Assembly (NCBI RefSeq): GCF_000092105.1
Contig: NC_014148.1
Span: 2,160,001-2,192,000 of the forward strand
Reading direction: 5' to 3'
Source: Planctopirus limnophila DSM 3776
GTDB lineage: Bacteria; Planctomycetota; Planctomycetia; Planctomycetales; Planctomycetaceae
Length of the DNA: 32,000 nt
Both the position numbers and the translations under genes were made by a program. Numbering within the stretch: position 1 is the stretch's first letter; each line of letters starts with the position of its first letter. Shown piece after piece: positions 1-15,534 of the stretch. The notes beneath the pieces are model-generated. The model saw nothing but the letters and a program-made list of their open reading frames with translations, ran no database searches and was not told the origin of the DNA.

Positions 1-920
1 CCGCCCGGGCCGAGATTTCTCGCCGTATGGTCGATCAACTGCGATCCCAGTTTCCCGACGAAGAATCGCTCAAGCCGATGAATTTTGCAGCGGCGAATGC
101 CGCCATGCTGATTTCTCGCGTGCATGGTTTCGAAGGTCCATCGCTGGTCATCGATGCCGCTTGTGCCTCATCACTGATGGCATTGAGTCAGGCTTCCTAC
201 GCCTTGGCACGTGGCGAAATCGATATGGCCGTGGCCGGTGGGGCATCGTACAGCAAGTGGTTTGGCCTCGTTCTGTTTTCGATGGCGATGTCCATCAGTG
301 CAACCGGGTCAAGACCCTTTGATGCCGACGCCGATGGGCTCATCAGTTCAGACGGTTATGGGCTGGTTGTTCTCAAGACTCTCCCGAAAGCGCTCGCCGA
401 TGGTGATCGAATTCTGTCGGTCATCCGCGGGATTGGTGTCTCTTCTGATGGACGCGGTAAAAGCCTTTGGGCACCACGCCAGGAAGGACAGATTCTCGCT
501 GTCGAACGGGCTTACTCGAAGAACATCGACCCCGCGTCGCTGCAATACATCGAATGTCATGCCACATCAACTCAGGTCGGCGATGCCACTGAACTCAAGT
601 CCCTGGCTCAAGTGCTGACTGGCAAGATCCCGGCTGGTCGAAAAATACCGATTGGAAGCGTGAAGGCTAATATCGGCCATGCTCTCGAGGCCGCAGGGAT
701 TGCAGGGTTTATCAAAACCGTCCTCGCCATGGAACATGGCGTGATCCCCCCCCAGATCAATTTCAAGACGCCTAATCCTGAAATTGAATGGAAGAACGTA
801 CCTTTTGAAGTTGCTACTAACGCCAGAGAGTGGGATCGTCCCGCAGGAGGAATGCCGCGACGAGCTGCCGTGAACTCGTTTGGTATCGGTGGGCTCAATG
901 TCCACATGGTGCTCGATGAC
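1..920 (+). other. Ketosynthase (KS) domain, partial at the N-terminus, catalytically intact
   Basis: Cys46 in DAACASS (TGT 162-164), His178 in IECHATSTQ, His218 in KANIGHALEAAG, and the C-terminal NSFGIGGLNVHMVL motif. Confidence 0.9.
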
Positions 921-3900
921 GGGCTATTGCCGGGTGAAAAATCCAAGACCTCTGTGGCCGTACCATCGGCACAGCCAAACAGCAACGTGGCACCGGCTCC
1001 GGTTCAGCAGCCGATGGCCGTCATTGGCATGGCATCAATCCTTCCCGGTGCTTTGACAAAAGCCGCCCTGTGGGAAGCACTCATCGCCGGCAAAGATCCC
1101 AAGTGCGAGTTTCCCAAAGAAAACAGCACCTTGGCCTCTACACTCCTCGCCGAAGAGCAGAAGTCACAAAAGCCAGAACTGACATCGCGCGGTGGTTACG
1201 TCGCAGATTTCGTTTACGATTGGAAGCGGCATAAAGTTCCACCCAAACAGGTCGCGAATGCCAATCCACTACAGTTCATGCTGCTCGATGCGGCTGACCA
1301 GGCTCTGACAGATGCCGGTTACGAAAAGAAGCCTTTTGATCGCAATCGTTCAACAGTCATTGTCGGAACGATGTTTGGAGGTGACTTTGCTGTTCAACTC
1401 CAGTTGGGTCTGCGTTTGCCACATATCCAAAAGGTGCTGCGCGAACATCTGGAAGCGAATGGCACAAAACCAGATCAGATTGACGAAGCTCTGCTTCAAT
1501 ATGAAAAGCACTTCTTGAAAGTTTTGCCGGCATTACTGGATGAAACTGGCAGTTTCACCAGCAGTACCCTCGCTTCAAGACTTTCGAAAACCTTCGATTT
1601 CCGCGGTGGGGCGTTTGCCCTCGAAGCTGAAGAAGTTTCCGGGCTGGTGGCTGTCAACCTGGGGATCAACATGCTCGAAACCGGCACGACAGATCTCGTT
1701 CTGTGTGCTGCCGGCCATCAATCGATGAGTTACAACAGCTTCGAAAAACTCGTCGAGAAAGATCTTCTGAGCAAAGGCCAATCCCGCTCGGCCTTCGATG
1801 CCGATTTCGATGGCATTCTGCCTGCAGAAGGCGTGGCCGTTCTCGTCCTGAAACGGCTTGCAGATGCCGAACGTGACGGGGATACAATCCGTGCAGTCAT
1901 TCGCGGAACTGGCCAGTGCAACCGTCGTAATGATGAAGCCGGTGCCCTGCGCGAGTCGTTTAACACGGCTCTCAAAGTTGCCAACACGTCACCCAAAGCC
2001 ATTGGTGCGATTGAAGTCTCTGGTGTCGATTGCAAAGACCGCAATTTCAACCAGCTCGAACTGGCCAAAACCATCGATCAGGAAAGTGGCCAGCCACAAG
2101 CCTTGATTGGCTCGCTGACTCCACAAATCGGTTACCTGCGTGGTGCCTCGGGAGTGGCTTCGATTGTCAAATCGATTCTCGAGTTGCAGAACGGTCAAAT
2201 CGCCCCGCAATTTGGTCTCAAAAAGCTGGCTGCGGAAGTTCAGCCTGTCGCACATGCGATTCCTCAAAAGGTCATGCCGCTCTATGCGACTGCCCCAGGA
2301 GAGAAGGGGCAGATTGCCATCAGCAACAGCTCTCTCGATGGATCGGGTTTCAGCCTGATACTCGAAAGTGCCCAGAAACTCCCACTCCGCCCGGTAACCA
2401 CTCCTTCAGTCGCAATCAGCCAACCAGCCAGTGCAAAACAGGCCCCGGCGACTCTGTCTTCCAGGCAGATAACCTCTCAGTCACGGAGGTCTAAGCTGGC
2501 TCTCGCCTTTCCTGGGCAGGGGTCTTACTACGCAGGGATGGGCGCTGACCTGATTGCAAATTACACCGAAGTCCGGCAGAAACTGGCCGAGTTCAACGAA
2601 GTCCTCAAACTCGAAAACTGCCCCGATTTTGAAACGCTGTCCGCAGACCCAGGCAACAGCATTCTCAATGCTCAACTCTCGATGCTCGTCATCGATCTGC
2701 TCTACTACACCGCCTACAAGACGGCGGGAATTCAGCCAGATTATGTCTGCGGACACAGTTATGGCGAGTTTCCTGCATTGGTGGCTGCCGGAGCACTGAC
2801 CTTCCGCAGTGCGGTCATTGCCACACGCGATCGATCGCATGTCGTGGAAGAGTTTGCCGGCAAGCAGGGGACCTTACTCGCGGTCTCTTCGGATGCTTCC
2901 ACTTTGCGCCATCTGTTGACGAGAGCACCAGTCGAAGTCTTCATTGCCAATATGAATTCACCCGAACAAACCGTTCTGGGTGGAACAATTGATGATTTGA
3001 AGCAATTCGAAAAGATCCTGCGGGAACGCCGGATAGGTAGCCGACTTCTGAAAGTCCCGGCTGCCTATCACACACCACTGCTCGAGCCGGCGCTCGTCAC
3101 TTATCGTGACTGCATTCGAGCTTTGCCAATTTCTGTTCCACAGATTCCAGTCATCAGTGGCATCGGCAATCGAGAAGTCACCGATCCGGAAGAGATTCGC
3201 GAGAATCTCGTAATGCAACTGGTCAGCCCCATGGACTTTGTGGGGATGGTTCAACTTTTAAGACAGCTTTCTGTCGGGATGGTGGTCGAAGTGGGGCCGC
3301 GTAAGGTGCTCACGCAACTGATCCAGAAAACAGCCAACGAAGGTCAGTTGGAATGCCTCCCCATGGATCCTCGCGACAATTCGTCGTCAGACTGGCAATC
3401 CACGCTCAGAAGCAAATATGAAGGATCTGTCGGCAATGCCTCACCGGCTGCTGCAACGCCTCAGAAAACGCCAGCTTCCCCAGTACCAGCACAGGCTCAA
3501 AAGCCAGTTTCGCAGCCACAGAAGCCCGCAGTTCAGCCTGCTGCAGCGAACTCATCCGTTTCGAAACCTGGCCAGACGAAATCTTGCCAGATTAATCCCA
3601 CTCCCGCAACGACCAACGTACCAACCACAGGTTCAAAAGTGACAGACCGTCCCCGTATCGTTCACTTCGACGCGACCGCGAAACGAAAAGAAGAAAATCG
3701 TCTGCGGGCAATCCAGCAGCGTGCAGAATCCGGGCGGCCTGTGGTCACATCGGCCAGTCCGAAAACAACGCAAAACTCACCTGCCATTTCGCACAGCGAC
3801 CTCGCTGAGACAAATGGACATTCCGGGCACTTCGAGAAGAATGGACACGCTTCGGATGTCACGAGCAAAGCACCAGCTCTCAACTCCGCTCAGATGAAAG

Positions 3901-6900
3901 AAGAGATCGTCCCTCCAGTCGTTGTGATCGAAGAGGTTCCAGCGGCTCCACGCAAGTTGCCCAATCGTGCTGAACTCGAAGCGTTTGTTGTCGAGTACAT
4001 CGTCGATCAGACTGGCTACCCGCCGGAGATGGTCGAACTCGAAGCTGATCTCGAAGCTGATCTGGGCATCGACAGTATCAAGAAGGCCCAGATGCTCGGG
4101 GAGTGCGCCCAGAAGTTCGAACTTCACTGGCTCGCCAATGAAGTCGCCGATCTGTCACTTGATCAGTTCCCGAATCTCGCTTCGATCATCAAGTTCCTGA
4201 CTGAAGATGCCGCCAAGGCCACTGCATCACCTTCGGAAGAACAACTTGCTGAATCCGTACCTGCCGCTGCTCTGCCAGCCGTAGCTATCGTGACTGAAAC
4301 CAGCGAAGAGGTAGTTCCACGCAAGTTGCCTAATCGTGCGGAACTTGAAGCATTCGTTGTCGAATACATCGTCGATCAGACGGGTTATCCGCCGGAGATG
4401 GTTGAACTCGAAGCGGATCTCGAAGCCGACCTCGGTATCGACAGCATCAAGAAGGCCCAGATGCTCGGCGAGTGCGCTCAGAAGTTCGAACTCCACTGGC
4501 TCGCCAATGAAGTCGCCGACCTTTCACTCGATCAGTTCCCGAATCTGGCTTCGATCATCAAGTTCCTGACCGAAGATGCCGCTAAAGCGTCTTCGAGTGC
4601 GAATACGATTGATGCGGTCGCGATTTCCAAATCGGTCGACACTGATGCCCCGAGGGAACCAGCTCATCAATCCGCCGAGACGTTGCCTGCTGTCCCCGCG
4701 ACCACAGTGACCAGCGAAACAGTGACCAGCGAAGAGGTGGCTCCTCGCAAGTTGCCCAATCGTGCGGAACTCGAAGCGTTTGTTGTCGAGTACATCGTCG
4801 ATCAGACTGGCTACCCGCCGGAGATGGTTGAACTCGAAGCGGATCTCGAAGCTGATCTGGGCATCGACAGTATCAAGAAGGCCCAGATGCTCGGGGAGTG
4901 CGCCCAGAAGTTCGAACTTCACTGGCTCGCCAATGAAGTCGCCGATCTGTCACTCGATCAGTTCCCCAATCTCGCTTCGATCATCAAGTTCCTGACTGAA
5001 GATGCCGCCAAGGCCACTGCATCACCTGCGGAAGAACAGCCTGCTGAAGCCGTACCTGCCGCTGCTCTGCCAGCTATTGCCATCGTGACTGAAACCAGCG
5101 AAGAGGTAGTTCCACGCAAGTTGCCTAATCGTGCTGAACTCGAAGCGTTCGTTGTCGAATACATCGTCGATCAGACTGGCTACCCGCCGGAGATGGTTGA
5201 ACTCGAAGCGGATCTCGAAGCTGATCTGGGGATCGACAGCATCAAGAAAGCCCAGATGCTCGGTGAATGTGCCCAGAAGTTCGAACTCCACTGGCTCGCC
5301 AATGAAGTCGCAGATCTCTCGCTCGATCAGTTCCCGAATCTGGCTTCGATCATCAAGTTCCTGACCGAAGATGCCGCCAAGGCGTCTTCGACATCACGAT
5401 CAGCATCGCATGTCGCCTCACCGGAGACCGAACTGGAACTTCAGGATTCCAGTACTGCCACAGCCACACTGACTGAACCAGCAAGTGTTTCCACACAAGC
5501 TGTGACCCAGGTCGTCGAAGCCGTGCCTGCGGTTTCAATAGTGAGAGAATCTGTCATGATTCTTCAAGGCAGCCCTTACGAAATGGGCTTCCAGCATGGT
5601 CAGAAAGAGAAAGCCGCCATCCACGGCATTCTTGAACGTCAGATCACGCGCTATGGTGCCCGACTCGACAACATGCCCGAGTTAGACGAGGCTGTCAGTG
5701 ATCCCGCACGATACTTCGGAGAAGATGAAGTCGCCGAGCTTAAAGGGATTGCCGACGGTGCCGAACTCCCTCTCGCATTCCTGATTGGCCATAACCTGGG
5801 CCTCTGCGAAGACTACGTCCCGGGCTGTGCCCAGTTTGCTGTCTCTGCCCAGGCCAATGGTGGGAAGGGAATGATCCATGCCGCCAACGAAGATTCTTCG
5901 CTCGCACTCAGTTTGACGGATTGCCTCCGCCGTGTGGTGCAGTGCCGAATTCCTGCCCATGGTTATCGACACATCGTCTTCAGCGTGAGTGGACAGGTCA
6001 GCGGCATCAATGGTACCAACGAAAAGGGCCTGACTGTCACCAGCACTTTGCTGCTGGATCGAGCCCCTCGCGACATCACGGCACCTGGCGACATCCATCC
6101 CGTGCTCATCAAGAAAATCCTCGAAAAGGCCGCCACACCGGCTGAAGCCATCGAGATCCTCAAAAGCTCCAAGCGAAATGGTGCCTGGGGAGTCTGCATC
6201 AGCCATGCCGATACCGATTCACTCTGCTATGTCGAATACGACAGTGATCAACTGGAAGTTCGCAGTGGGATGACTCGCGTCATTGGCACGAACCACTCGT
6301 TGCTGCTCGGCGCCACACATCCGACACCTCCACACTCCATGCACCGTATGGATCGCCTGCAAGAACTGCTGGCCAAGGAAGAAGCTATGGGGCTCGACTT
6401 CCCGGCTGCTGAAAAAACTCTTCGCGATCAGTTCGATGGTGGGCGTCAGCGAGTCACTGCTCATGCGACCATGAACACGATCTGCCGTGTCGATAACCAG
6501 ATCAGTGTGGTCTTTGGCCCAAGCGAGAAGACAATTCGTGTAACTCCCGGTTCATATCGCAAAGAATTTGCACATGAATTCTCCACGCTTGATGTCGATG
6601 GCTTCTTCGGTGGTGCTGATGAATTAGTCGTCAACGATGTCCCGACAAACTCAAACACGGGCTCCAGCGTCGGTTCGACATCAAAATTAATACCAGCACA
6701 GCAGACCGATCTCCCTCGATTAGCTGGTTTACCAGTTATCGATGAGCGTGTAATGCATCGGGTCATCCTGCGTCCGCGTTTGTCACCGCTCTCGCATGCA
6801 GCACAAAAGGTAAGTCTCACTGGTAAAACAGTTGTCTATGGTTTCGGTGAAGTTGCCAGGGCCTTGATCTCCAAGTTGAAGTCCACAGGCCTCGAAGTTG

Positions 6901-9900
6901 CTGTGATACCTACCTGTTTTGATGTGACAAAGCTGGAAGCTGAGTTCGAAAATCTGGCAGCGCTCAAATCTGCCAGGAATCTGATTCTGGTGGGGCCACG
7001 ATCCTCAGATGAAGTCAGTGAAGCGAGTGCTTCTGCACGATTCCTGACAGCCTTCCGTCTTTGCCAGTTATGGACTCAAAGCGGTCAGGAAATCTGCCCG
7101 CTGGCCGAGAGATCGTTAACCTTTGTCTCCTTCATGGGAGGAAATTTCGGTCTCGAAGGGAGCCCAGCCAATGCCGATGGTGGTGCCATGTCTGGCCTTG
7201 CCAAGGCCCTTCGCCGCGAACTGGCACCTCTGGTTGTCCGCACTGTCGATTTTGCCAGTGACGATGTAACAGACAGGGTCGTGGATCAGCTTGCCAATGA
7301 ACTCTCACAATCTTTTGAAATATGCGAAGTTGCCTATTCGCGTGGTGAGCGTTTTGTTGTGGCAGCCCGCCCTGTGCCGGCGACTCCGGTACCACAAAAT
7401 GGGCCAACACCTGGATCGGCATGGATCATTTCCGGTGGTGCCCGAGGCGTCACTGCGGTCGTCGCCAGAGAACTTGGAGTTCGTTATGGAGTCCACCTTC
7501 ATCTGATTGGTTCTTCACCAATCCCTGAACTGGATCCATCACTTCTGGAGGCTTCAGCCGAAGAGTTGAAAGCCTTGCGTCGGAAAATCATGTCCGAGGC
7601 GCGTGAACGTGGCGAAGTTCCTCTCGATGCCTGGAGCACATTCGAACGCAGCCTCGAAGCCCGTCGCAACCTGCGTGACATGCGGCAAGCAGGTGTTTCA
7701 GTCACTTATCATTGCTGCGATATCAGTCAACCCGATGCCGTTGAAAAAACGGTTGCAGCCATCCGTACCTTCAATCATCCGATTGAAGGGGTCATTCACG
7801 GAGCCGGGGTGGAACATGCCTGTCGATTTGAACGCAAGCAGTTACCCAAGGTCCAAAAGACCTTCGATGTCAAAGTCGAAGGCGCACGTCACCTGGCTGC
7901 AGCACTCGAACATGATCCCGTGGCGTACTTTGTGGGATTCGGTTCCACCAGTGGTCGCTTCGGTGGTTTAGGTCAGGCCGATTACTCGGCAGCTTCCGAT
8001 GCACTCGCCAAGTTCTGTAATGAACTGGGCCGCAAGAATCCCGACTGGCGGACCATTGTGGTTCACTGGCCACCCTGGGGCGAAGTGGGCATGGCAGCCC
8101 GCCCTGAAAGTAAACTCGCTCTCGAAGCCGGCGGAATGGCGTTTATGCCACCACAAGAAGGCGTCGCCTTCCTGCTGGAAGAATTGGCTTCAACGTCACC
8201 AGAACCAGAAATCCTGATTGTCGATAAGCCAGATGGCCTCGATCTCGATCGTACGCTTCCTGAACTGGCAGCATGGAAAGATTTCGCAGCCGCCCAGCAA
8301 GTGGTCGATGCCTCGCCTCTGCTGGATACCGTGATCGCCCTGACTCCTGGGGAGTATGTCGAAGTCGAAGTTCGATTGAACCCGGCACAAGATCCCTTCC
8401 TGTACGATCATCAACATCGCAATGCCCCCATTCTCCCAATGACATTCGGTCTGGAGACATTGGCTCAGGCATTCAGAGTTCTGCTACCCGCAACCGAGCA
8501 GGTGACTGTGCTCGATGGGGAAATTGTCAATCCCATGCGGTTCTTTGCGGATCGTCAAGAACTCGCCATCGCTCGCATCCGTCGCTCGGGAGACAGCTTC
8601 GAAGGGGAACTCGTCACCAGGTTCTTCAATCGCAAGGGCGTCTTGCTCAAGCACGAACGGGTGCTCGTCAAAGCCCGGCTCAAACCCGGTGTCGATGCAC
8701 CGGACGCAGCCAAACCTTTCAAATCATCCATGCAGCTCAAGAAAGTTCAGTACGCAGAAACGTGGGATCAAGTCGCTGCATTGAATCTGGGGAGTGTCTT
8801 CACGGGCCCCTCCATTCGAGGATTGACGGAGTTCGCTTACGAAGGGAAGACCTTCGAAGGGATCATCGTTCCACCACCGATCAGTGGATTTGCCGGAAAT
8901 CGCCCGGCAACCGGCTGGATGTTGAATCCTGCTGTGCTTGATGCCTGCCTCATTGGGTGTGATCGCTGGGCAGCACAGGCCGTCGAGCGGCAAAGCCTTC
9001 CCGTGAACATCGAAAAGGTCAGCCTGTATCGACCCGCCATCGATGGTGATCTCTGCCGGATTGATGGTCAGGTGCTCGAAGTCACTGAGAAAAATCTGCG
9101 ATTCAACTTCTCTCTCTGGAACTCGAAAAACGAAATCATTCTGCGGGTCGAAGGATTCTGCACTACGGCAGTAATGGGCGGTTCACAACCGGAAACATCA
9201 GCAGAAATTCCTGCCGGGATCGCTTCCAGAGCCATCCCGGAATTGAAATCCCTCAACCCTGCCGATCTGCACTTGCTGTTCCCCGTCGAAGCCGTCACAG
9301 CCAGTGCTGATCATTGGGAAGCCGAAGTGCGGATCGAGCCTTTGACAGAGCCATTAATGACGGCTCACCGGTTTAACAACTCGCCACTCCTCCCCGGAGC
9401 AGCGATGGTCGAGTTGTTTGCCGAAGCTTTGCAGCAGGTTCTTCCGGGCCCTGGTGTGGCTCGAATTCGCAACTTCTCCATTCAGCATTCGCTGCACCTG
9501 AAGGCTGCTCTCCCGCGTCGTGTGCAGGTCGTGGCACATAAAGAAGCTGATGGCTATCGCTGCCAGCTAATTGATCTCGATGGTGGTTCGATCACTCTGG
9601 CAACGGCTCTGATTGACCGAGTGGATGCAGCCAACCTGCAATTGCCACAACTCGATCAGCCCAAGGGCAGCTATAGCCCCATGAAGTATCCCGATATGGG
9701 GCCTCTGATTCATGGCGCACCACTGCGCAGCCTGCAGGCGATGTGTTCCGGGCGTGATGATGCGTGGGCCGAAATCGTTCCGACAGATATGAGCAAATTG
9801 CTTGGGCCGAATTCGAAATGTCAGCCGGTCATTCACCCGGCTGTCCTCGATGGCAGCTTCTACGCCTGTGGAATTCACGCCTGGATCAACTGCTTCGGAA

Positions 9901-10109
9901 GAGTCGAGTTACCACTTGGTTTTGAGGAACTGCTGATTCTCCGTGATCAGCCATTAAGCAAAACCGACAAACTGGTCACTCGTGTCCGATACCGCGACAG
10001 TGACGACAAAGGTTCTTCATATGAAATCTCCGTTTTCGACAAACAGAAACAACCAGTCTATGTTGTCAGGAACTATCGCAGTGTTGCTAAAGGCAGCGTG
10101 ACATTGTGA
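1..10109 (+). CDS. Giant iterative type I PKS / PUFA-synthase-like secondary-lipid megasynthase, 5'-truncated by the window edge. Domains: KS, KS0 (CLF-like), AT, 4x ACP, C45/IAT-like acyltransferase, KR, DH, DH.
   Basis: Uninterrupted 3360-aa ORF from 27. The frame stays open back to nt 3 (ARAEISRR upstream of the first Met), and only about 55 aa precede the KS active-site Cys, so the N-terminus lies outside the window. Motifs seen: DAACASS / ECHATST / NIGHALEAAG (KS), GHSYGE (AT, 2751-2768), four LGIDSIKK phosphopantetheine sites, SGGARGVT Rossmann plus ADYSAAS (KR), and two HxxxNxxxxP plus LDxxx hot-dog DH motifs. Confidence 0.95.
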   Translation, partial: ARAEISRRMVDQLRSQFPDEESLKPMNFAAANAAMLISRVHGFEGPSLVIDAACASSLMALSQASYALARGEIDMAVAGGASYSKWFGLVLFSMAMSISATGSRPFDADADGLISSDGYGLVVLKTLPKALADGDRILSVIRGIGVSSDGRGKSLWAPRQEGQILAVERAYSKNIDPASLQYIECHATSTQVGDATELKSLAQVLTGKIPAGRKIPIGSVKANIGHALEAAGIAGFIKTVLAMEHGVIPPQINFKTPNPEIEWKNVPFEVATNAREWDRPAGGMPRRAAVNSFGIGGLNVHMVLDDGLLPGEKSKTSVAVPSAQPNSNVAPAPVQQPMAVIGMASILPGALTKAALWEALIAGKDPKCEFPKENSTLASTLLAEEQKSQKPELTSRGGYVADFVYDWKRHKVPPKQVANANPLQFMLLDAADQALTDAGYEKKPFDRNRSTVIVGTMFGGDFAVQLQLGLRLPHIQKVLREHLEANGTKPDQIDEALLQYEKHFLKVLPALLDETGSFTSSTLASRLSKTFDFRGGAFALEAEEVSGLVAVNLGINMLETGTTDLVLCAAGHQSMSYNSFEKLVEKDLLSKGQSRSAFDADFDGILPAEGVAVLVLKRLADAERDGDTIRAVIRGTGQCNRRNDEAGALRESFNTALKVANTSPKAIGAIEVSGVDCKDRNFNQLELAKTIDQESGQPQALIGSLTPQIGYLRGASGVASIVKSILELQNGQIAPQFGLKKLAAEVQPVAHAIPQKVMPLYATAPGEKGQIAISNSSLDGSGFSLILESAQKLPLRPVTTPSVAISQPASAKQAPATLSSRQITSQSRRSKLALAFPGQGSYYAGMGADLIANYTEVRQKLAEFNEVLKLENCPDFETLSADPGNSILNAQLSMLVIDLLYYTAYKTAGIQPDYVCGHSYGEFPALVAAGALTFRSAVIATRDRSHVVEEFAGKQGTLLAVSSDASTLRHLLTRAPVEVFIANMNSPEQTVLGGTIDDLKQFEKILRERRIGSRLLKVPAAYHTPLLEPALVTYRDCIRALPISVPQIPVISGIGNREVTDPEEIRENLVMQLVSPMDFVGMVQLLRQLSVGMVVEVGPRKVLTQLIQKTANEGQLECLPMDPRDNSSSDWQSTLRSKYEGSVGNASPAAATPQKTPASPVPAQAQKPVSQPQKPAVQPAAANSSVSKPGQTKSCQINPTPATTNVPTTGSKVTDRPRIVHFDATAKRKEENRLRAIQQRAESGRPVVTSASPKTTQNSPAISHSDLAETNGHSGHFEKNGHASDVTSKAPALNSAQMKEEIVPPVVVIEEVPAAPRKLPNRAELEAFVVEYIVDQTGYPPEMVELEADLEADLGIDSIKKAQMLGECAQKFELHWLANEVADLSLDQFPNLASIIKFLTEDAAKATASPSEEQLAESVPAAALPAVAIVTETSEEVVPRKLPNRAELEAFVVEYIVDQTGYPPEMVELEADLEADLGIDSIKKAQMLGECAQKFELHWLANEVADLSLDQFPNLASIIKFLTEDAAKASSSANTIDAVAISKSVDTDAPREPAHQSAETLPAVPATTVTSETVTSEEVAPRKLPNRAELEAFVVEYIVDQTGYPPEMVELEADLEADLGIDSIKKAQMLGECAQKFELHWLANEVADLSLDQFPNLASIIKFLTEDAAKATASPAEEQPAEAVPAAALPAIAIVTETSEEVVPRKLPNRAELEAFVVEYIVDQTGYPPEMVELEADLEADLGIDSIKKAQMLGECAQKFELHWLANEVADLSLDQFPNLASIIKFLTEDAAKASSTSRSASHVASPETELELQDSSTATATLTEPASVSTQAVTQVVEAVPAVSIVRESVMILQGSPYEMGFQHGQKEKAAIHGILERQITRYGARLDNMPELDEAVSDPARYFGEDEVAELKGIADGAELPLAFLIGHNLGLCEDYVPGCAQFAVSAQANGGKGMIHAANEDSSLALSLTDCLRRVVQCRIPAHGYRHIVFSVSGQVSGINGTNEKGLTVTSTLLLDRAPRDITAPGDIHPVLIKKILEKAATPAEAIEILKSSKRNGAWGVCISHADTDSLCYVEYDSDQLEVRSGMTRVIGTNHSLLLGATHPTPPHSMHRMDRLQELLAKEEAMGLDFPAAEKTLRDQFDGGRQRVTAHATMNTICRVDNQISVVFGPSEKTIRVTPGSYRKEFAHEFSTLDVDGFFGGADELVVNDVPTNSNTGSSVGSTSKLIPAQQTDLPRLAGLPVIDERVMHRVILRPRLSPLSHAAQKVSLTGKTVVYGFGEVARALISKLKSTGLEVAVIPTCFDVTKLEAEFENLAALKSARNLILVGPRSSDEVSEASASARFLTAFRLCQLWTQSGQEICPLAERSLTFVSFMGGNFGLEGSPANADGGAMSGLAKALRRELAPLVVRTVDFASDDVTDRVVDQLANELSQSFEICEVAYSRGERFVVAARPVPATPVPQNGPTPGSAWIISGGARGVTAVVARELGVRYGVHLHLIGSSPIPELDPSLLEASAEELKALRRKIMSEARERGEVPLDAWSTFERSLEARRNLRDMRQAGVSVTYHCCDISQPDAVEKTVAAIRTFNHPIEGVIHGAGVEHACRFERKQLPKVQKTFDVKVEGARHLAAALEHDPVAYFVGFGSTSGRFGGLGQADYSAASDALAKFCNELGRKNPDWRTIVVHWPPWGEVGMAARPESKLALEAGGMAFMPPQEGVAFLLEELASTSPEPEILIVDKPDGLDLDRTLPELAAWKDFAAAQQVVDASPLLDTVIALTPGEYVEVEVRLNPAQDPFLYDHQHRNAPILPMTFGLETLAQAFRVLLPATEQVTVLDGEIVNPMRFFADRQELAIARIRRSGDSFEGELVTRFFNRKGVLLKHERVLVKARLKPGVDAPDAAKPFKSSMQLKKVQYAETWDQVAALNLGSVFTGPSIRGLTEFAYEGKTFEGIIVPPPISGFAGNRPATGWMLNPAVLDACLIGCDRWAAQAVERQSLPVNIEKVSLYRPAIDGDLCRIDGQVLEVTEKNLRFNFSLWNSKNEIILRVEGFCTTAVMGGSQPETSAEIPAGIASRAIPELKSLNPADLHLLFPVEAVTASADHWEAEVRIEPLTEPLMTAHRFNNSPLLPGAAMVELFAEALQQVLPGPGVARIRNFSIQHSLHLKAALPRRVQVVAHKEADGYRCQLIDLDGGSITLATALIDRVDAANLQLPQLDQPKGSYSPMKYPDMGPLIHGAPLRSLQAMCSGRDDAWAEIVPTDMSKLLGPNSKCQPVIHPAVLDGSFYACGIHAWINCFGRVELPLGFEELLILRDQPLSKTDKLVTRVRYRDSDDKGSSYEISVFDKQKQPVYVVRNYRSVAKGSVTL
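1008..2372 (+). other. Degenerate KS / chain-length-factor-like domain (KS0)
   Basis: KS-fold similarity over aa ~328-782. In a hand alignment to the upstream KS the catalytic triad is replaced: Cys->Glu536 (ALEAEEVSG, 1632-1634), His->Ser665 (IEVSG), His->Tyr703 (QIGYLRGASG). Confidence 0.8.
2490..3371 (+). other. Acyltransferase (malonyl-CoA:ACP transacylase-like) domain
   Basis: FPGQGSYY N-terminal motif, GHSYGE active-site serine motif at 2751-2768, and the downstream AAYHTPLL motif. Confidence 0.85.
3951..5384 (+). repeat. Tandem array of four ACP-encoding repeat units (3951-4220, 4320-4589, 4746-5015, 5115-5384)
   Basis: A 90-codon core (RKLPNRAELEAFVVEYIVDQTGYPPEMVELEADLEADLGIDSIKKAQMLGECAQKFELHWLANEVADLSLDQFPNLASIIKFLTEDAAKA) occurs four times in frame. 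Unit offsets are 369, 426 and 369 nt. Linkers 1 and 3 resemble each other, as do the tails after units 2 and 4 (795-nt super-repeat). Ppant serines are at 4074, 4443, 4869 and 5238. Confidence 0.95.
5553..6581 (+). other. Peptidase C45 / acyl-CoA:6-aminopenicillanic-acid acyltransferase (IAT)-like Ntn-hydrolase-fold domain embedded in the PKS
   Basis: Hand alignment to Penicillium IAT (PenDE) over aa ~1843-2185. ILQGSPYEMGFQHG matches ILCQGTPFEIGYEHG, ELKGIADGAELP matches EIRGIAKGAERD, VPGCAQFAV matches RDGCTTAY (the Gly-Cys processing site), and IGTNHSL matches VHTNHCL. Confidence 0.8.
6759..8201 (+). other. Ketoreductase region (structural pseudo-KR subdomain plus catalytic KR)
   Basis: NADPH-binding motif AWIISGGARGVTAVVARELG. 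SDR-like catalytic region GFGSTSGRFGGLGQADYSAASDAL. A Rossmann-like structural half lacking the cofactor motif lies upstream. Confidence 0.8.
8319..9176 (+). other. PKS-type (double hot-dog) dehydratase domain 1
   Basis: LYDHQHRNAPILP matches the HxxxGxxxxP motif with Asn at the Gly position (His codon 8409-8411). The second-half PAVLDACL motif is present. Confidence 0.7.
9279..10106 (+). other. PKS-type (double hot-dog) dehydratase domain 2
   Basis: TAHRFNNSPLLP matches HxxxGxxxxP, again with Asn (His codon 9366-9368). The second-half PAVLDGSFYA motif is present. Confidence 0.7.
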
Positions 10110-10915
10110 TCAGTAACGACGGAATGAGTGACTGCGGGGTCAGGGAGGGTATGACTTCTCAATTCGAGATTCATACCGCCACCAGGGCACAACTACGAAC
10201 CGAACTGCACTCAAGCAGTCTCGGAGAAAAGTTTGCCATCGGTGCGGAAATGTTCCTCGACCCTGCCCGCAAAGAATCGTGGGAACTGAGCCGATTTTTG
10301 ATCGCGAGTCGAGTTTTTACGCTGCTGAAAACTGATCGCTCTCAGGATTTCTTGTCTCCCGAGTTATCAGAGATCGAAGTATGGACTCGCAATGATCAGG
10401 GCAGGGGGATTCCACCAGCAGTTTTCATCGACAACCAACCCATCCCCTGGACATTTTCGCTCTCACATGCAGGAGACAATTACGCACTCGCCATTTGCAG
10501 GCAGCCGCAGTTACGACCCGGAGTGGATCTGGTCAACACCAGCACTTTCACTCAGGCAGCCTTACAAATGTGGTTCACGCCGGAGGAAAGAACATATCTC
10601 GCAACGCAGGATGAGCGGGCCGCAGGAACCATCTGGGCACTCAAGGAAGCGGTCTACAAAGCCACAAATTGCGGGGAACCATTTCGACCAAGGCAGATAG
10701 AAATTCTTCCAGAAGGCAAAAAGTTGATTTGCCGTGTGAGGGGGATTCATGTGCACCTTGATGAGGCAATCATCCGCTTCATCGAAAAAGATTGTCTGCT
10801 CGCAGCCGTCTTAATCAAGCAGAACTCTTTCCCGAACACTGATAAAAACCACTTCGATAACAAAACCAATTCTCACTCAATCAATGACACATCTCACGAT
10901 CTGATCATGCATTGA
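10106..10915 (+). CDS. 4'-phosphopantetheinyl transferase (Sfp-type)
   Basis: PPTase motifs PGVDLV and IWALKEAVYKA. The GTG start overlaps the PKS stop (GTGA at 10106-10109). Alternative ATG starts are at 10124 and 10151; the latter is preceded by GGAGG. Confidence 0.85.
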   Translation: MISNDGMSDCGVREGMTSQFEIHTATRAQLRTELHSSSLGEKFAIGAEMFLDPARKESWELSRFLIASRVFTLLKTDRSQDFLSPELSEIEVWTRNDQGRGIPPAVFIDNQPIPWTFSLSHAGDNYALAICRQPQLRPGVDLVNTSTFTQAALQMWFTPEERTYLATQDERAAGTIWALKEAVYKATNCGEPFRPRQIEILPEGKKLICRVRGIHVHLDEAIIRFIEKDCLLAAVLIKQNSFPNTDKNHFDNKTNSHSINDTSHDLIMH

Positions 10916-10975: not shown

Positions 10976-11740
10976 ATGATTGATTTAACCAATAAGATCG
11001 CCCTCGTCTCCGGGGCCTCACGCGGCATTGGTCGCGCGACAGCATTGCAACTTGCCCGCGCCGGGGCTGACGTGGTCATCAATTATGTACAATCTCGCGA
11101 CAGTGCTGACCGAGTGGCAGAAGAGATCGCCGCCATGGGCCGCCGCGTGGCCATTGTCCGTGCGGATGTCAGCGAGCAGAGCGATGTTCAGAGCATGATG
11201 GAATTTGTGGGCAATGAATTTGGCAGGCTCGACATTCTCGTCAGTAATGCTGCATCGGGGGGATTCCGCCCCTTGCTGGCGGCCACTCCCAAGAATTTCG
11301 AAGCCGCGATGAATACCAATGTCCGCGCACTTCTATTCCTCGTACAGGCCGCACATCCTTTGTTGGGGCAAAGTGTCGATCGAGCCAAGATTGTGGCCAT
11401 TTCGAGCCATGGCTCACACATGGCACTCCCATGGTATGGCCTGATTGGTACCTCCAAAGCAGCACTGGAAAGCCTGATTCGCCACATGGCACTTGAGTTT
11501 GGCGACCAGGGAATGAACTTCAACGTCGTCCAGGCGGGACTGGTTCCCACAGACTCCACCAAGATGATTCCTGGCTCCGAAGTCATGTTCAATGCGCGAA
11601 GCTCCAAGACCATGATGGGTGATCGCCAACTGGAACCCGAAGACGTTGCGAACGCAGTCCTTTACCTTTGCAGTCCACTGAGCGATCTGGTGCAAGGGCA
11701 AGTCTTGATCATCGACGGCGGGGCCGCCATTCACGTCTAA
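10976..11740 (+). CDS. fabL: SDR-family enoyl-[ACP] reductase, FabL-like
   Basis: 254-aa classical SDR with VSGASRGIGRA cofactor motif, the NAASGGFRP motif typical of FabL (B. subtilis NNAASGVLRP), and ISSHGS...Y..IGTSKAALESL catalytic Tyr/Lys. It aligns end to end with B. subtilis FabL as I recall that sequence. Confidence 0.7.
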   Translation: MIDLTNKIALVSGASRGIGRATALQLARAGADVVINYVQSRDSADRVAEEIAAMGRRVAIVRADVSEQSDVQSMMEFVGNEFGRLDILVSNAASGGFRPLLAATPKNFEAAMNTNVRALLFLVQAAHPLLGQSVDRAKIVAISSHGSHMALPWYGLIGTSKAALESLIRHMALEFGDQGMNFNVVQAGLVPTDSTKMIPGSEVMFNARSSKTMMGDRQLEPEDVANAVLYLCSPLSDLVQGQVLIIDGGAAIHV

Positions 11741-11832: not shown

Positions 11833-13512
11833 ATGCTCAATCTGATCTTCTCCATGATCGGCAGTTTCCTGGCACGGAAAGTCGGCCAGCAGCGAATGGC
11901 GTTTCATCAAGCCACAATGCGCCCCCGCGAATCGCAACAGGCCTTCTTAAAAGAATTACTTGCTGCCCATGCGGATTCGGCGTTTGGCAAGGATCATTTT
12001 TTTCGAGAAATTCAAACTGCGGCTGATTTCCAGAAGAGATTGCCAATCGCTGAGTACGAGAACTTTGCCCCCTACATCGAGCGCGTCAAAGCGGGTGAAA
12101 CCACCGCGATGTTCTGCAACGAACAGATTGTCATGTTCAATCTCACCAGTGGTACGAGCAGCACTCGAAAATTTATTCCCGTCACCAATCGCTACCTCAG
12201 TGATTACCGACGCGGCTGGTCGATGTGGGGCTTACAGACTTTCGAAAAGTACCCGCAGCTTTTCCTGCAGCCAAAAGTCAGCTTTGGCAGTGCCTCGAAG
12301 GAATCGGTCACGTCAGCGGGCATTCCGTGTGGCAGTTTGAGTGGCCTGACTGTCAAAATGAATCCTGCTGTCGTACGCAGCACCTATTGCCTCCCTGCTG
12401 ATACGGCTGACCATGCCGACGCTTTCGCCAGATGTTACCTCAACTGGCGAATCGGCATCCAAAGAAACCTTGGCATGGGTGTCGCCCCGAATCCGGGTTT
12501 GCTTCTCCAGTTCGCTCGCTATGGAACCGAGAACGCCGAATGTCTCATTCGCGAACTTCATGACGGCACTCATTCCTGTACGGCTGCCTTGCCGCGGCAT
12601 CTCCAGAATTGGCTCAAACGCCAGATCCGCCCAAATCGCAAACGTGCTCGCGAACTGGAGCAGATCTTTACTCGCCAGATGACTCTCCACCCGAAAGATG
12701 TCTGGCCTCAGCTCAAACTGATTGCCTGTTGGCTGGGTGGGCCAACCAGAGCTTATATCTCACAGATTCCCGAGTATTTCGGAGATGTCACATTGCGGGA
12801 TATTGGCCTGATCTCCAGTGAAAGCCGCATCAGCCTTCCCAAAGAAGACAACACACCTGCGGGTATTCTCGATGTGACCAGTGCCTATTTTGAGTTCGTA
12901 CCTGTCGACGAAATGGATTCCAGCAATCCCGTTGTGCTCGATGCTGCCGAACTCGAAACCGGCAAAGAGTATTACATCCTTTTGACAACGACCAGTGGGC
13001 TCTATCGATACAACATTCATGATGTGGTACGAGTCGTTGACTGGCACGAAAAAACACCCATGATCGAATTTCTGCATAAAGGAAGCAGAATTGCCAATCT
13101 CTTCGGTGAAAAACTCACGGAGAGCCAGATTGTCAAAGCGGTCACAACGTTCGTTCAATCAACAGCCACGCCTCTGGGCGATTTTTCACTGACTATGCCT
13201 CTGCCACATGAGCCGATGGCCTATCGGTTTTACGCCGAAATGCGAGATGCATTCTCTTCCGATTCGATCGCCACTCTGGCTCGGCAACTGGACGAATCTC
13301 TGGGTGAGCAGAACTATCTGTACCGCCGTAAAAGAGTCGAAGGCCTGCTCCATCCCCTGGAATTGATCGTCATTCCACAAGGTGCCTGGCGCGCCTGGGA
13401 TCTCCGCCAACTCGCCCGCAATGGCGGCACCATGGATCAGTACAAGCATCCTTTTCTGATCACCAATCGCAGCCTGATTGACGATCTTCAGGTTGAGCCT
13501 GTCAGTTCTTAA
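11833..13512 (+). CDS. GH3 family acyl-acid amido synthetase (GH3 auxin-responsive promoter family, ANL-like adenylating enzyme)
   Basis: 559 aa. GH3 motifs NLTSGTSSTRKFIP (12145-12180), GLYRYNIHDVVRV and NLFGEKLTESQ. The length is typical of bacterial GH3 proteins. Confidence 0.85.
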   Translation: MLNLIFSMIGSFLARKVGQQRMAFHQATMRPRESQQAFLKELLAAHADSAFGKDHFFREIQTAADFQKRLPIAEYENFAPYIERVKAGETTAMFCNEQIVMFNLTSGTSSTRKFIPVTNRYLSDYRRGWSMWGLQTFEKYPQLFLQPKVSFGSASKESVTSAGIPCGSLSGLTVKMNPAVVRSTYCLPADTADHADAFARCYLNWRIGIQRNLGMGVAPNPGLLLQFARYGTENAECLIRELHDGTHSCTAALPRHLQNWLKRQIRPNRKRARELEQIFTRQMTLHPKDVWPQLKLIACWLGGPTRAYISQIPEYFGDVTLRDIGLISSESRISLPKEDNTPAGILDVTSAYFEFVPVDEMDSSNPVVLDAAELETGKEYYILLTTTSGLYRYNIHDVVRVVDWHEKTPMIEFLHKGSRIANLFGEKLTESQIVKAVTTFVQSTATPLGDFSLTMPLPHEPMAYRFYAEMRDAFSSDSIATLARQLDESLGEQNYLYRRKRVEGLLHPLELIVIPQGAWRAWDLRQLARNGGTMDQYKHPFLITNRSLIDDLQVEPVSS

Positions 13513-13710: not shown

Positions 13711-14727
13711 ATGCCTTCCATTTCAAACTGCCGTCAGCAGCTCCAGCAAAAACTTTTCCCTCAGGGAATTCCCCGACTCTGGTGCCCCTCACTGACTCAC
13801 TTCTCAGCCGCCGCTCAGTTCGACGTCCAGAGAATTCGCGCTCATGTCACGGCGATGTCACCCTGGATCGGTGGACTACTGGTTCCCGGATCGACAGGCG
13901 AAGGCTGGGAGATGACCGATGACGATATTGAGCAGTTGCTGGAAATCACGTTCGAGATCGCCAACTCCCTCAATCTGCCTGTCCTGATTGGTGTCTTGAA
14001 AACTTCGACAGACAACGTGATGAGTGGCATCCAGAGGCTGCATCAATTTTCACAGCATCCACGGTTTGCCGGATTCACTGTCTGTCCACCGCAAGGTGAA
14101 AAGTTAACACAGCCCGAAATTCTGGCTGGATTACGCACGGTCTTCGATACAGGATACCCAATTGCTCTCTATCAGTTGCCACAAGTTACCAGGAATGAAG
14201 TCTCACGCGAGACAGTGCAATGGCTGGCGGCCAACTACCACAATCTCATCCTGTTCAAAGACACCAGCGGACATGACCGTGTCGCAAACTCCGGCGTCGA
14301 TCTGCAGGGCGTCTTTCTGGTTCGCGGTGCGGAAGCTGGCGGCTATGCGCCTTGGCTGAAAGAAGCGGGCGGGCCCTACGATGGATTTCTACTGAGCACT
14401 GCCAATGTCTTTGCGAAAGAACTGGCGACCATGATTCAACTCGCAGAAACGGGCCAGATCGACGAAGCAAGAGCACTATCGACTCGACTGGAAACTCTCG
14501 TACAACAGACCTTCGATTCCGTGAAATCCATCTCGGCAGGAAATCCCTTTACCAATGCCAACAAAGTGCTCGATCACATCCGGGCTTATGGAGAAAGCTT
14601 TCACATTCAGCCAGCACCACTGCTTTACAGTGGTATTTCACTTCCGTGGGAACCCATAGCTCAAGGACATGAACGACTGAAAGTGTGGCAGCAAGCACCA
14701 CTGACCGGATATCTCAACACTCTGTGA
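13711..14727 (+). CDS. Dihydrodipicolinate synthase / N-acetylneuraminate lyase family class I aldolase
   Basis: 338 aa. VPGSTGEGWEMT (GxTGE motif), LYQLPQVT (Tyr motif) and LILFKDTSG (candidate Schiff-base Lys) occur in the order expected for the DHDPS family. Confidence 0.7.
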   Translation: MPSISNCRQQLQQKLFPQGIPRLWCPSLTHFSAAAQFDVQRIRAHVTAMSPWIGGLLVPGSTGEGWEMTDDDIEQLLEITFEIANSLNLPVLIGVLKTSTDNVMSGIQRLHQFSQHPRFAGFTVCPPQGEKLTQPEILAGLRTVFDTGYPIALYQLPQVTRNEVSRETVQWLAANYHNLILFKDTSGHDRVANSGVDLQGVFLVRGAEAGGYAPWLKEAGGPYDGFLLSTANVFAKELATMIQLAETGQIDEARALSTRLETLVQQTFDSVKSISAGNPFTNANKVLDHIRAYGESFHIQPAPLLYSGISLPWEPIAQGHERLKVWQQAPLTGYLNTL

Positions 14728-14854
14728 TCTTTGCCGCAAAACACTCGATTTTTACCGTTTCCTTGGCGTGGCATCGCTGTTTATCGTCTCGTATAACGAT
14801 GACACTCGAATGACACCAAATGTTCTGATCCTGTTATCTCCATGAGGTTCTTCC

Positions 14855-15421
14855 GTGTCACAGCCCAAAGTTCTCATCGTTGTCGGAGACGCGACAGAAA
14901 CCGTCGATACGCTTTATCCTTACTACCGCTTAATTGAAGGGGGATATCAGCCTGTCGTGGCTGCTCCGGAGAAACGCAAGTATCAGATGGTTCTGCACGA
15001 AGTGAAGCCCGGTTGGACGATCACCAAAGAGTGGGAAGGCTATTCGATTGATGCAGAGATCGCCTTCAAAGACATTCGCCCTGAAGATTATGCCGGAATC
15101 TTCTTCAGTGGGGGCAGGGCTCCTGAATACATTCGCGAAGACGAAGATCTGCTGAACATCACCCGCTGGTTCTGGGAAAAGCGCCTGCCGATGGCCAGTG
15201 TTTGCCATGGAGTTGAAATTCCGGCGCGTGCTGGCATTGTCAAAGGTCTACGCATGGCGACTGTCGCCAAATGCCGCTTCGATCTTGAAATCTGCGGCGG
15301 AATCTACGTCAACGAACCCTGTGTGATCGATCGCAACATGGTGAGTGGTCGCACCTACCACGACAGCGGCCACTTTGTGGGCCCATGGATTCAAATGCTC
15401 GATCGCTGTCGCAAAGCCTGA
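14855..15421 (+). CDS. DJ-1/PfpI family protein (class I glutamine amidotransferase-like fold)
   Basis: 188 aa with a GTG start. The nucleophile elbow MASVCHG and overall DJ-1/PfpI pattern are present (VLIVVGD..., FFSGGRAPE). Confidence 0.8.
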   Translation: MSQPKVLIVVGDATETVDTLYPYYRLIEGGYQPVVAAPEKRKYQMVLHEVKPGWTITKEWEGYSIDAEIAFKDIRPEDYAGIFFSGGRAPEYIREDEDLLNITRWFWEKRLPMASVCHGVEIPARAGIVKGLRMATVAKCRFDLEICGGIYVNEPCVIDRNMVSGRTYHDSGHFVGPWIQMLDRCRKA

Positions 15422-15506
15422 AGGGGCAGGCTCCTCGGTATTTGATGTCGGTAGGACAAGTCAAACGCATGGCGCTGCGTCTTGTCCTCGTGCCTCTGCA
15501 CGACAA

Positions 15507-15527
15507 CCCGGCCACGAGTTGGCCGGG
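15507..15527. terminator. GC-rich hairpin between convergent genes (candidate bidirectional terminator)
   Basis: cccggcca (15507-15514) pairs perfectly with tggccggg (15520-15527) around a 5-nt loop. It lies 8 nt beyond the avtA stop on the minus strand and 86 nt beyond the DJ-1 stop. There is no clear U-tract. Confidence 0.35.
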
Positions 15528-15534
15528 CCACCCG

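Follow-up and report, generated by a model that had tools for sequence, protein, structure and literature searches.

A C45/IAT-type Ntn domain inside an iterative type I synthase of Planctopirus limnophila as a candidate self-processing chain-release domain

The way in which iterative type I synthases of the polyunsaturated fatty acid (PUFA)/HglE-like kind release their product, when no thioesterase (TE) is present, is a recurring question, and it is raised again by a locus of Planctopirus limnophila DSM 3776. In the stretch of 32,000 nucleotides analysed here (contig NC_014148.1, positions 2,160,001 to 2,192,000; hereafter the window, to whose first letter all coordinates refer unless another locus is named), the gene at 27..10109 on the plus strand encodes a type I polyketide synthase (PKS) with the domain order KS-CLF(KS0)-AT-ACPx4-C45-psiKR/KR-DH-DH in Pfam and NCBIfam terms, that is, ketosynthase (KS), chain-length factor (CLF), acyltransferase (AT), four acyl carrier proteins (ACPs), the C45 domain, ketoreductase (KR) and two dehydratases (DH). 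The full protein (P0010 = ADG67503.1 / WP_013109934.1 / UniProt D5SX03) has 3527 aa, and its existing annotation reads 'type I polyketide synthase', nothing further. At 5553..6581 the polypeptide carries a domain of the isopenicillin-N acyltransferase (IAT, PenDE) type, a candidate release catalyst of wholly different fold within the synthase itself. The proposal considered here is that this domain is a self-processing, built-in chain-release domain of the synthase; the comparison with its relatives leaves this proposal evenly poised between acceptance and rejection.

An IAT-type domain within the megasynthase

By profile and by predicted fold, the region is a genuine, full-length C45/IAT-type N-terminal nucleophile (Ntn) domain of 343 aa (aa 2010-2352 of the full protein; 5553..6581, plus strand), in which the nucleophile Cys, the Gly preceding it and the further motifs are intact. 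It reads through without a stop inside the single open reading frame (ORF) 27..10109. The hidden Markov model search that a preliminary description of this DNA had proposed for the region matched NCBIfam NF040521, 'C45 family autoproteolytic acyltransferase/hydrolase', over the entire profile (1-313/313; 138.9 bits against a cut-off of 85; E=2.2e-40), and Pfam AAT, PF03417, with 54.7 bits against a cut-off of 23.2. When the domain was compared with the PDB by phmmer, IAT was the sole significant match (2x1c/2x1d, E=1.6e-4), and this match rises to E=1.4e-23 with a profile of 22 family members. All four motif pairings with IAT that had been quoted beforehand are seen in the alignments: ILQGSPYEMGFQHG of the C45 domain aligns with LCQGTPFEIGYEHG of IAT, ELKGIADGAE pairs with EIRGIAKGAE, GTNHSL pairs with HTNHCL, and the family 'aGC' falls on D-G102-C103 of IAT in the alignment of the 22-member profile. 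In domain numbering, N112-E-D114, ~20 aa beyond the Cys, falls on N-W-D121 of IAT, T-N247-H248 on T-N-H, and S262/R265/R268 on S..R..R.

The structure prediction, also proposed beforehand, gave a confident AlphaFold2 model of window:5523-6611 (67 sequences; pLDDT 93.0, pTM 0.93), for which the best fold match in the PDB, as found by Foldseek, is the IAT precursor 2x1c (E=3e-19, template-modelling (TM) score 0.75-0.77). Precursor and mature IAT head the list of fold matches (TM 0.72-0.77), ahead of uncleaved acid ceramidase and the NAAA precursor. The model has the alpha-beta-beta-alpha fold of Ntn hydrolases, with a helical alpha segment at the N-terminus as in IAT. Residues 91-100 of the model, the loop ending at Gly-Cys, have a mean pLDDT of 67, the lowest inside the model, and homologues carry up to about 40 additional aa in the loop that directly precedes the Cys; such a low-confidence, insertion-tolerant loop is consistent with a spacer that ends at a scissile bond. 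At the levels of both sequence and structure, the profile, the fold, the Gly-Cys pair and the active-site motifs all place the domain in C45, and the assignment of 5553-6581 to this type, made earlier from the sequence, is borne out by the full-length NF040521 match, the PF03417 match and the IAT fold match.

The predicted autoproteolytic site and nucleophile is the Gly-Cys pair at 5823..5828 on the plus strand, which aligns with Gly102/Cys103 of IAT and is encoded by ggc at 5823-5825 and tgt at 5826-5828; both the Cys codon and the Gly codon directly before it had been read correctly. Upstream of the Cys lies the presumed alpha segment, 91 aa (5553..5825, plus strand), mostly helical and ending in a variable loop and the Gly, and downstream the presumed beta segment (5826..6581, plus strand) with the N-E-D, T-N-H, S..R..R and RDxFD motifs. 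While the site and its codons stand as first described, the residue numbering does not. The ORF is open at the 5' end of the window (bases 3-26 contain no stop upstream of the listed ATG at 27), the 167 N-terminal aa of the megasynthase fall outside the window, where the first KS is therefore incomplete, and, because the ORF begins upstream of the window, all window-derived residue numbers are 167 too low; the true site is Gly2100/Cys2101 and not Gly1933/Cys1934. The size of 1427 aa that had been given for the C-terminal fragment (aa 1934-3360 in window numbering) is correct.

Among 91 full-length representatives, Gly91 is kept in 95% and Cys92 in 91%, and N112, D114, N247, H248, R265, R268 and D292 are conserved in 98-100%. 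Between P. limnophila and P. hydrillae (L001), the codon differences in the C45 domain comprise 62 synonymous and 5 non-synonymous changes, as compared with 69/6 in the KR, 56/15 in the first DH and 36/17 in the psiKR linker; the comparison is valid from C45 to the second DH only, since the register of KS, CLF, AT and ACP is shifted by indels. Purifying selection on the C45 domain is as strong as on the KR. In more distant orthologues the identity of the domain is ~40-52%, level with the KR and higher than AT, CLF and DH. Chance similarity and mis-translation are ruled out by the full-length profile matches, the fold match and the 62:5 ratio of synonymous to non-synonymous codons.

Distribution, fixed placement and loss of the nucleophile

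An exhaustive HMMER search over 1.84 billion representatives returned 540 matches and 108 clusters (50% identity) with E<1e-30, most of which are proteins of 1000-3500 aa; such a search is needed, as a word-index protein search finds almost no long homologues. In the domain mapping of the longest proteins the C45 domain lies between AT/ACP and psiKR-KR in 58/58, and the same placement is seen in 46/46 fetched loci, among which are 18 species-representative genome loci and 27 metagenome loci. These loci belong mostly to Planctomycetaceae and to metagenome-assembled genomes (MAGs) of Pirellulales, together with a small number of MAGs that bear the label of another phylum. The recurrence of one order in 46 loci and 58 long proteins from independent assemblies rules out a one-off fusion or an assembly artefact, and upholds the earlier view of the domain as an integral part of the megasynthase. 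The ACPs are variable in position (before C45, before KS, or on a separate protein), and C45-psiKR-KR are always found together, the psiKR linker and catalytic KR (6714..8126, plus strand, in the window) following directly 3' of C45 in every homologue. The homologues are annotated as 'type I polyketide synthase' or, wrongly, as '6-deoxyerythronolide-B synthase' or 'PpsA'.

Free-standing C45 proteins are far more distant, with identities of 31% or less, and the two nearest stand outside PKS contexts. These two, P0159 and P0004, were considered as trans-acting release enzymes of PKS clusters and rejected, their contexts being unrelated; among loci L019-L080 a KS lies nearby in L022 only. In some of the related clusters a second KS-CLF protein, extended by -KR-DH or by -ACP3 and devoid of both AT and C45, was observed (L097 15294-20500; L107 1954-6300), and because such proteins without C45 occur, related systems can be multi-protein with one C45 per cluster. 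No natural gene split at Gly-Cys that could be used as evidence for a cleaved state was found among the three candidates P0027/L081, L015 and P0093. P0027 is a 650-aa ACP-C45 protein from contig L081 (contig_14615), on which the synthase is broken into many ORFs; at L015 the synthase is similarly broken into several ORFs; and P0093, which starts 46 aa upstream of the Cys, is probably fragmentary. Split database 'proteins' such as P0027 are probably frameshift artefacts of error-rich long-read-type assemblies.

No TE domain occurs in any of the 58 long proteins, nor do these have an unassigned C-terminal domain, and no TE was seen across the 46 loci. In the window's cluster (megasynthase, neighbouring genes and small ORFs) there are no TE, hotdog or alpha/beta-hydrolase genes, and no other release enzyme was found in the window beside C45. 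The preliminary description had seen no TE in the protein, which Pfam confirms for the protein, and the conserved cluster likewise holds none.

A survey of homologues, also proposed in that description, found the insertion to be recurrent and the Gly-Cys pair to be widely kept, and in addition revealed what had not been foreseen, namely that 9% of the members have no Cys. In 8/91 representatives and 8/46 loci the Cys is absent (Gly-Gly, Gly-Ile or a deletion) or the Gly and N-E-D are lost. On a neighbour-joining tree these members form two lineages: a Gly-Gly clade (L009, L011, L013, L015, L016, L097 and L099) and the deep branch of L017/L018. A stand-alone thioester reductase (NAD_binding_4, 'male sterility', ~508 aa) lies directly upstream of the synthase in 6/6 assessable Cys-less loci. 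Upstream reductases of this type are present at L011 (362-1885), L013 (2139-3662), L015 (2571-4070), L016 (1957-3465), L017 (2174-3700) and L018 (2257-3753), and likewise at L088, L094, L097, L107 and L081. Two of the reductases were scanned for further domains; an SCP2 lipid-binding domain is present in that of L013 and absent from that of L017. (Gly/Ala)-Cys is kept in 14/14 loci for which 2 kb or more of upstream sequence is available and shows no gene of this type. The probability that chance alone would place all six Cys-less loci in the reductase-positive set (11 loci out of 25) is C(11,6)/C(25,6) = 0.0026, a figure that counts loci and not events. The loss of the Cys in company with the reductase fits a chain-release role of C45.

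Proposed self-cleavage and chain release, and the alternatives

Cysteine Ntn enzymes of families C45, C59 and C89 gain activity only when an intramolecular N-to-S acyl shift, at the residue preceding the Cys, has set free the alpha-amine of the latter. In IAT the acyl group of an acyl thioester is then carried as an acyl-S-Cys103 intermediate, and the enzyme also hydrolyses acyl-CoA thioesters. By analogy with these enzymes we infer cleavage, an acyl-ACP substrate and a hydrolytic outcome for the planctomycete domain. Once folded, the domain would undergo an intramolecular N-to-S acyl shift at Gly2100-Cys2101 (G1933/C1934 in window numbering), by which the 3527-aa protein would be split into KS-CLF-AT-ACP4-C45alpha (2100 aa) and C45beta-KR-DH-DH (1427 aa), the two fragments being held together by the alpha/beta packing of C45. 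The predicted C-terminal fragment would begin with an N-terminal Cys at CAQFAVSAQANGGK. With its own free amine as activator, this Cys would attack the thioester of the finished acyl-S-ACP and yield acyl-S-Cys.

For the Planctopirus clade, the continuation may be read from the neighbouring gene at 11833..13512 (plus strand), which encodes a GH3-family acyl-acid amido synthetase. NCBIfam gives one match for it, the planctomycete lyso-ornithine-lipid synthetase OlsH (E=1e-33, well under the cut-off), a distantly related GH3 enzyme that converts free fatty acid and ATP to N-acyl ornithine (PMC12493201). A GH3 gene follows the cluster in 8/9 Planctopirus-type loci (L001, L003, L082-L087) and is absent at L004. 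In this clade water would resolve acyl-S-Cys to a free acid; the adjacent GH3 enzyme would adenylate this acid and couple it with an amine, with an N-acyl amino-acid-type lipid as the result. A hydrolytic step with subsequent ATP-dependent amidation is favoured there because GH3 needs a free carboxylate, and the link with GH3 suggests that the product is a new lipid of this type.

The off-loading role, which had been suggested earlier for the domain, gains indirect support from the missing TE, from the loss of the Cys only in lineages with a reductase, and from the GH3 clade, but several observations weigh against it. Only two independent Cys losses lie behind the association with the reductase, and the absence of a reductase was judged from the fetched flanks only. 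Reductase and intact Gly-Cys occur together at L081, L088, L094 and L107, and because these four loci carry both, the reductase and the C45 Cys are not simple alternatives. The Gly-Gly clade keeps N-E-D, N-H, S/R/R and RDRFD, and its C45 domain shows no free decay; since these other motifs are kept, a Cys-less C45 would have a function independent of the nucleophile, for example in binding or scaffolding. The GH3 gene is restricted to one clade, and cleavage and activity are extrapolated from relatives at 17-18% identity. The position of C45 is fixed beside psiKR and not beside the ACPs, which in many loci are on another protein, and this fixed C45-psiKR coupling could reflect a structural role. 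A single AT is able both to load and to unload, as does the MPT of fungal fatty acid synthase (FAS), and the one AT of this synthase might in principle take off the chain as well. In true PUFA synthases, ATs of the PfaB type are terminal acyltransferases (PMC12895367).

The same evidence has to be set against four other explanations. If the self-processed domain acted as an IAT-like N-acyltransferase, an amine (an amino acid, a polyamine or a lipid head group) would resolve acyl-S-Cys directly to an N-acyl lipid. IAT, the closest solved relative, does transfer acyl groups from a thioester to an amine, acid ceramidase and NAAA, which come next in structure, act on fatty-acyl amides, and in the majority of clades, where GH3 is missing, an amide- or ester-forming step could reside in C45; the GH3 enzyme conserved in the window's own clade would, however, be redundant, no gene for the synthesis of an amine acceptor is consistently co-located, and at 18% identity the acceptor-binding residues are not identifiable, so that this explanation is rather unlikely. 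As an on-line hydrolase or editing enzyme, the domain would strip a protecting or mis-primed group from an ACP-bound intermediate instead of releasing the final chain; such a function has its precedent in the sole characterised C45 enzymes of carrier-protein pathways: AzsT (azaserine), Tri14 (triacsin) and DobA, stand-alone enzymes acting on carrier-protein-bound substrates (PMC10445470; bioRxiv 10.1101/2025.05.24.655970), hydrolyse an N-succinyl amide on the carrier. Editing would also account for the loci in which an intact C45 and a thioester reductase are found together. Nevertheless, it is improbable, as the synthase possesses fatty-acid-type domains only (KS, CLF, AT, ACP, KR, DH and a trans-acting enoyl reductase (ER)), with nothing to introduce an amide, and the reductase-free loci would be left without any release activity.

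A starter-unit loader, passing an acyl group from acyl-CoA to the C45 Cys and on to an ACP or KS thiol, would suit a synthase that has no dedicated loading domain, and IAT does take acyl-CoA donors. Yet KS-CLF pairs normally prime by decarboxylation of malonyl-ACP, which makes a loader unneeded, the C45 domain stands at the ACP/KR junction and not at the N-terminus, and the loss of the Cys accompanies a release-type thioester reductase and no alternative loader; loading is very improbable as the function of the domain. The remaining explanation is mainly architectural: C45 would serve between AT/ACP and psiKR either as a scaffold or pseudo-enzyme, or as a self-cleaving module that merely produces two docked subunits. 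That 8/91 representatives and 8/46 loci without Cys keep the domain and most of its motifs speaks for such a role, as does the invariant placement before psiKR while the ACPs move; moreover, true PUFA synthases are multi-subunit, and cleavage would recreate a two-subunit enzyme. The nucleophile, N-x-D, T-N-H and Arg are nonetheless kept in 91-100% under selection like that on the KR, which exceeds the needs of a scaffold, and wherever no second release enzyme is seen, the Cys is retained; both make a mainly architectural role unlikely. P. limnophila is genetically tractable, and a single substitution, C2101A, would put the proposed release domain to the test.

Host synthase, neighbouring genes and meaning for the family

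The domains surrounding C45 define the kind of synthase in which release would take place. All lie on the plus strand. The KS (27..926) bears the active-site motif DAACASS, with ~167 N-terminal aa upstream of the window; it is followed by a second KS-like domain of the chain-length-factor type (KS0; 999..2366), from which the active-site Cys is absent, by a FabD-like AT with the motif GHSYG (2484..3356), and by the four tandem ACPs (3944..5407). Downstream of the KR, profile matches identify two PKS-type dehydratases (PKS_DH_N / PS-DH; 8304..10106). The ACPs are encoded by DNA repeats of 300 nt each (3944-4243, 4313-4612, 4739-5038 and 5108-5407), spaced 369, 426 and 369 nt from start to start. 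Copies 1 and 3 are 98% identical in DNA, compared with 84-88% for copies 2 and 4 against copy 1, a pattern suggestive of gene conversion or of a unit of two ACPs that was duplicated recently.

The label 'PUFA synthase' used in the preliminary description proved too specific. The megasynthase scores 760.3 bits with omega_3_PfaA (TIGR02813), against a cut-off of 1010.1, and does so in 5 separate stretches. Of the features that mark PfaA, a tandem ACP array on one polypeptide with KS, AT and KR is present, with four ACPs; no FabA-type DH was found by Pfam in the megasynthase, whose DHs are PKS-type only, no PfaD-type ER gene lies within the window, and the adjoining ER is FabL-like. By these criteria a bona fide PfaA is excluded, and from its domain content the host is best named a PUFA/HglE-like iterative type I synthase. 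The 'Type J' cluster described for P. limnophilus by Shulse and Allen was considered as a possible earlier record of this gene and set aside; it is a different locus, with an ER and KS-MAT-ACP3-KR.

The conserved core of the cluster consists of the synthase, a 4'-phosphopantetheinyl transferase (PPTase) and a FabL-like ER. The PPTase (10106..10915, plus strand) adjoins the synthase in many loci; its ORF, with GTG at 10106, shares 4 nt with that of the synthase, which ends at 10109, and this overlap suggests translational coupling. The most consistently co-located gene (10976..11740, plus strand) encodes a short-chain dehydrogenase/reductase (SDR) of 254 aa, a FabL-like enoyl-ACP reductase with 58-68% identity across loci, which NCBIfam matches far better to FabL than to any other model (E=1e-78, short of the equivalog cut-off); judged by this match, it is presumably the trans-acting ER of the otherwise ER-less synthase. 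In several related clusters one or two genes similar to Rieske / ring-hydroxylating-oxygenase alpha subunits were observed, either between PPTase and SDR or further downstream (L013 14455-15678 and 15693-16877; L003 18695-19882; L009 9643-10761; L015 14466-15593; also in L085, L086 and L107), and their products may hydroxylate or desaturate the chain. After GH3, the stretches 13711-16824 and 17222-18403 of the window contain DHDPS-family aldolase-like, DJ-1/PfpI and valine-pyruvate transaminase-like (minus strand) genes, next to which comes a sigma-54 activator. The first three follow GH3 in Planctopirus only; these genes may or may not be part of the cluster, for example in amine supply.

Compared with known systems, the domain shares most with IAT of Penicillium chrysogenum (MEROPS C45; PDB 2x1c/2x1d/2x1e): the fold (TM 0.75-0.77), the family profile, Gly102-Cys103, N-x-D, T-N-H, S..R..R and an alpha segment of ~90-100 aa before the Cys. 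IAT, however, is a free-standing peroxisomal enzyme of 357 aa with 17-18% identity, whereas the C45 domain described here is internal to a 3527-aa synthase; the donor of IAT is acyl-CoA, and here it would be acyl-ACP; and the cleavage of IAT splits a 40-kDa proenzyme, where here it would split a megasynthase. Acid ceramidase and NAAA (PDB 5u81, 6dxw) have in common with it the fold, self-cleavage at an internal Cys and long-chain fatty-acyl substrates, but they are eukaryotic lysosomal amidases of another sequence family, outside any synthase; matches to the acid-ceramidase profile are marginal (E=1.7e-5 and 0.001), and the NAAA match is to the alpha-subunit alone (E=0.0026). AzsT, Tri14 and DobA differ in being separate proteins that cleave an N-succinyl amide and leave the thioester intact, in hydrazone/diazo pathways similar to those of nonribosomal peptide synthetases.

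Off-loading acyltransferases of PUFA synthases form a second point of reference. An AGPAT domain fused to myxobacterial Pfa3 is the off-loading acyltransferase of such a synthase. The terminal acyltransferase PfaB resembles the role proposed for C45, in that acyl transfer or release is dedicated to a TE-less PUFA-type synthase with tandem ACPs (PMC12895367). These off-loaders have alpha/beta-type AT (Ser-His) or AGPAT folds and undergo no proteolytic maturation, in contrast to the Ntn Cys hydrolase fold of C45. With the iterative synthases of the HglE/PfaA type that have tandem ACPs and release reductively (HglB-type thioester reductase) the host shares the KS-CLF-AT-ACPn-KR-DH logic and an adjoining PPTase, and loci related to the host's have a stand-alone thioester reductase; the host departs from them in scoring below the PfaA cut-off, in a FabL-like ER that takes the place of PfaD and in having no FabA-type DH. 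To our knowledge, none of the described members of the HglE/PfaA type has a C45 domain. The combination of an Ntn domain and a synthase on one polypeptide is present in none of these named precedents. The author of the preliminary description knew of no such assembly-line domain, and a search of the full-text literature, with subscription-only papers outside its coverage, likewise found no description of a C45/AAT domain in a PKS, FAS or PUFA synthase.

For the planctomycetes, among which a type III PKS cluster is the only biosynthetic gene cluster approached in a targeted way according to a 2025 review (PMC12078418), the domain marks a large group without assigned product, with more than 100 sequence clusters that belong mostly to Planctomycetota. 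It is conceivable, although with somewhat more doubt than assurance, that the whole family consists of megasynthases that cut themselves and use the exposed Cys as release catalyst, the domain having become a pseudo-enzyme where a reductase was acquired. Were the proposed role true, the family would provide the first PKS/FAS assembly line that cleaves itself, and the domain would be a fourth kind of release domain beside the TE, reductase (R) and terminal condensation (C)/AT domains. Self-cleavage would split the assembly line post-translationally into two subunits with a built-in docking element, which would be new for PKS/FAS, and it would provide an engineering device by which stoichiometric two-subunit synthases are obtained from one gene. 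As for the products, the link with GH3 points to new N-acyl amino-acid-type lipids.

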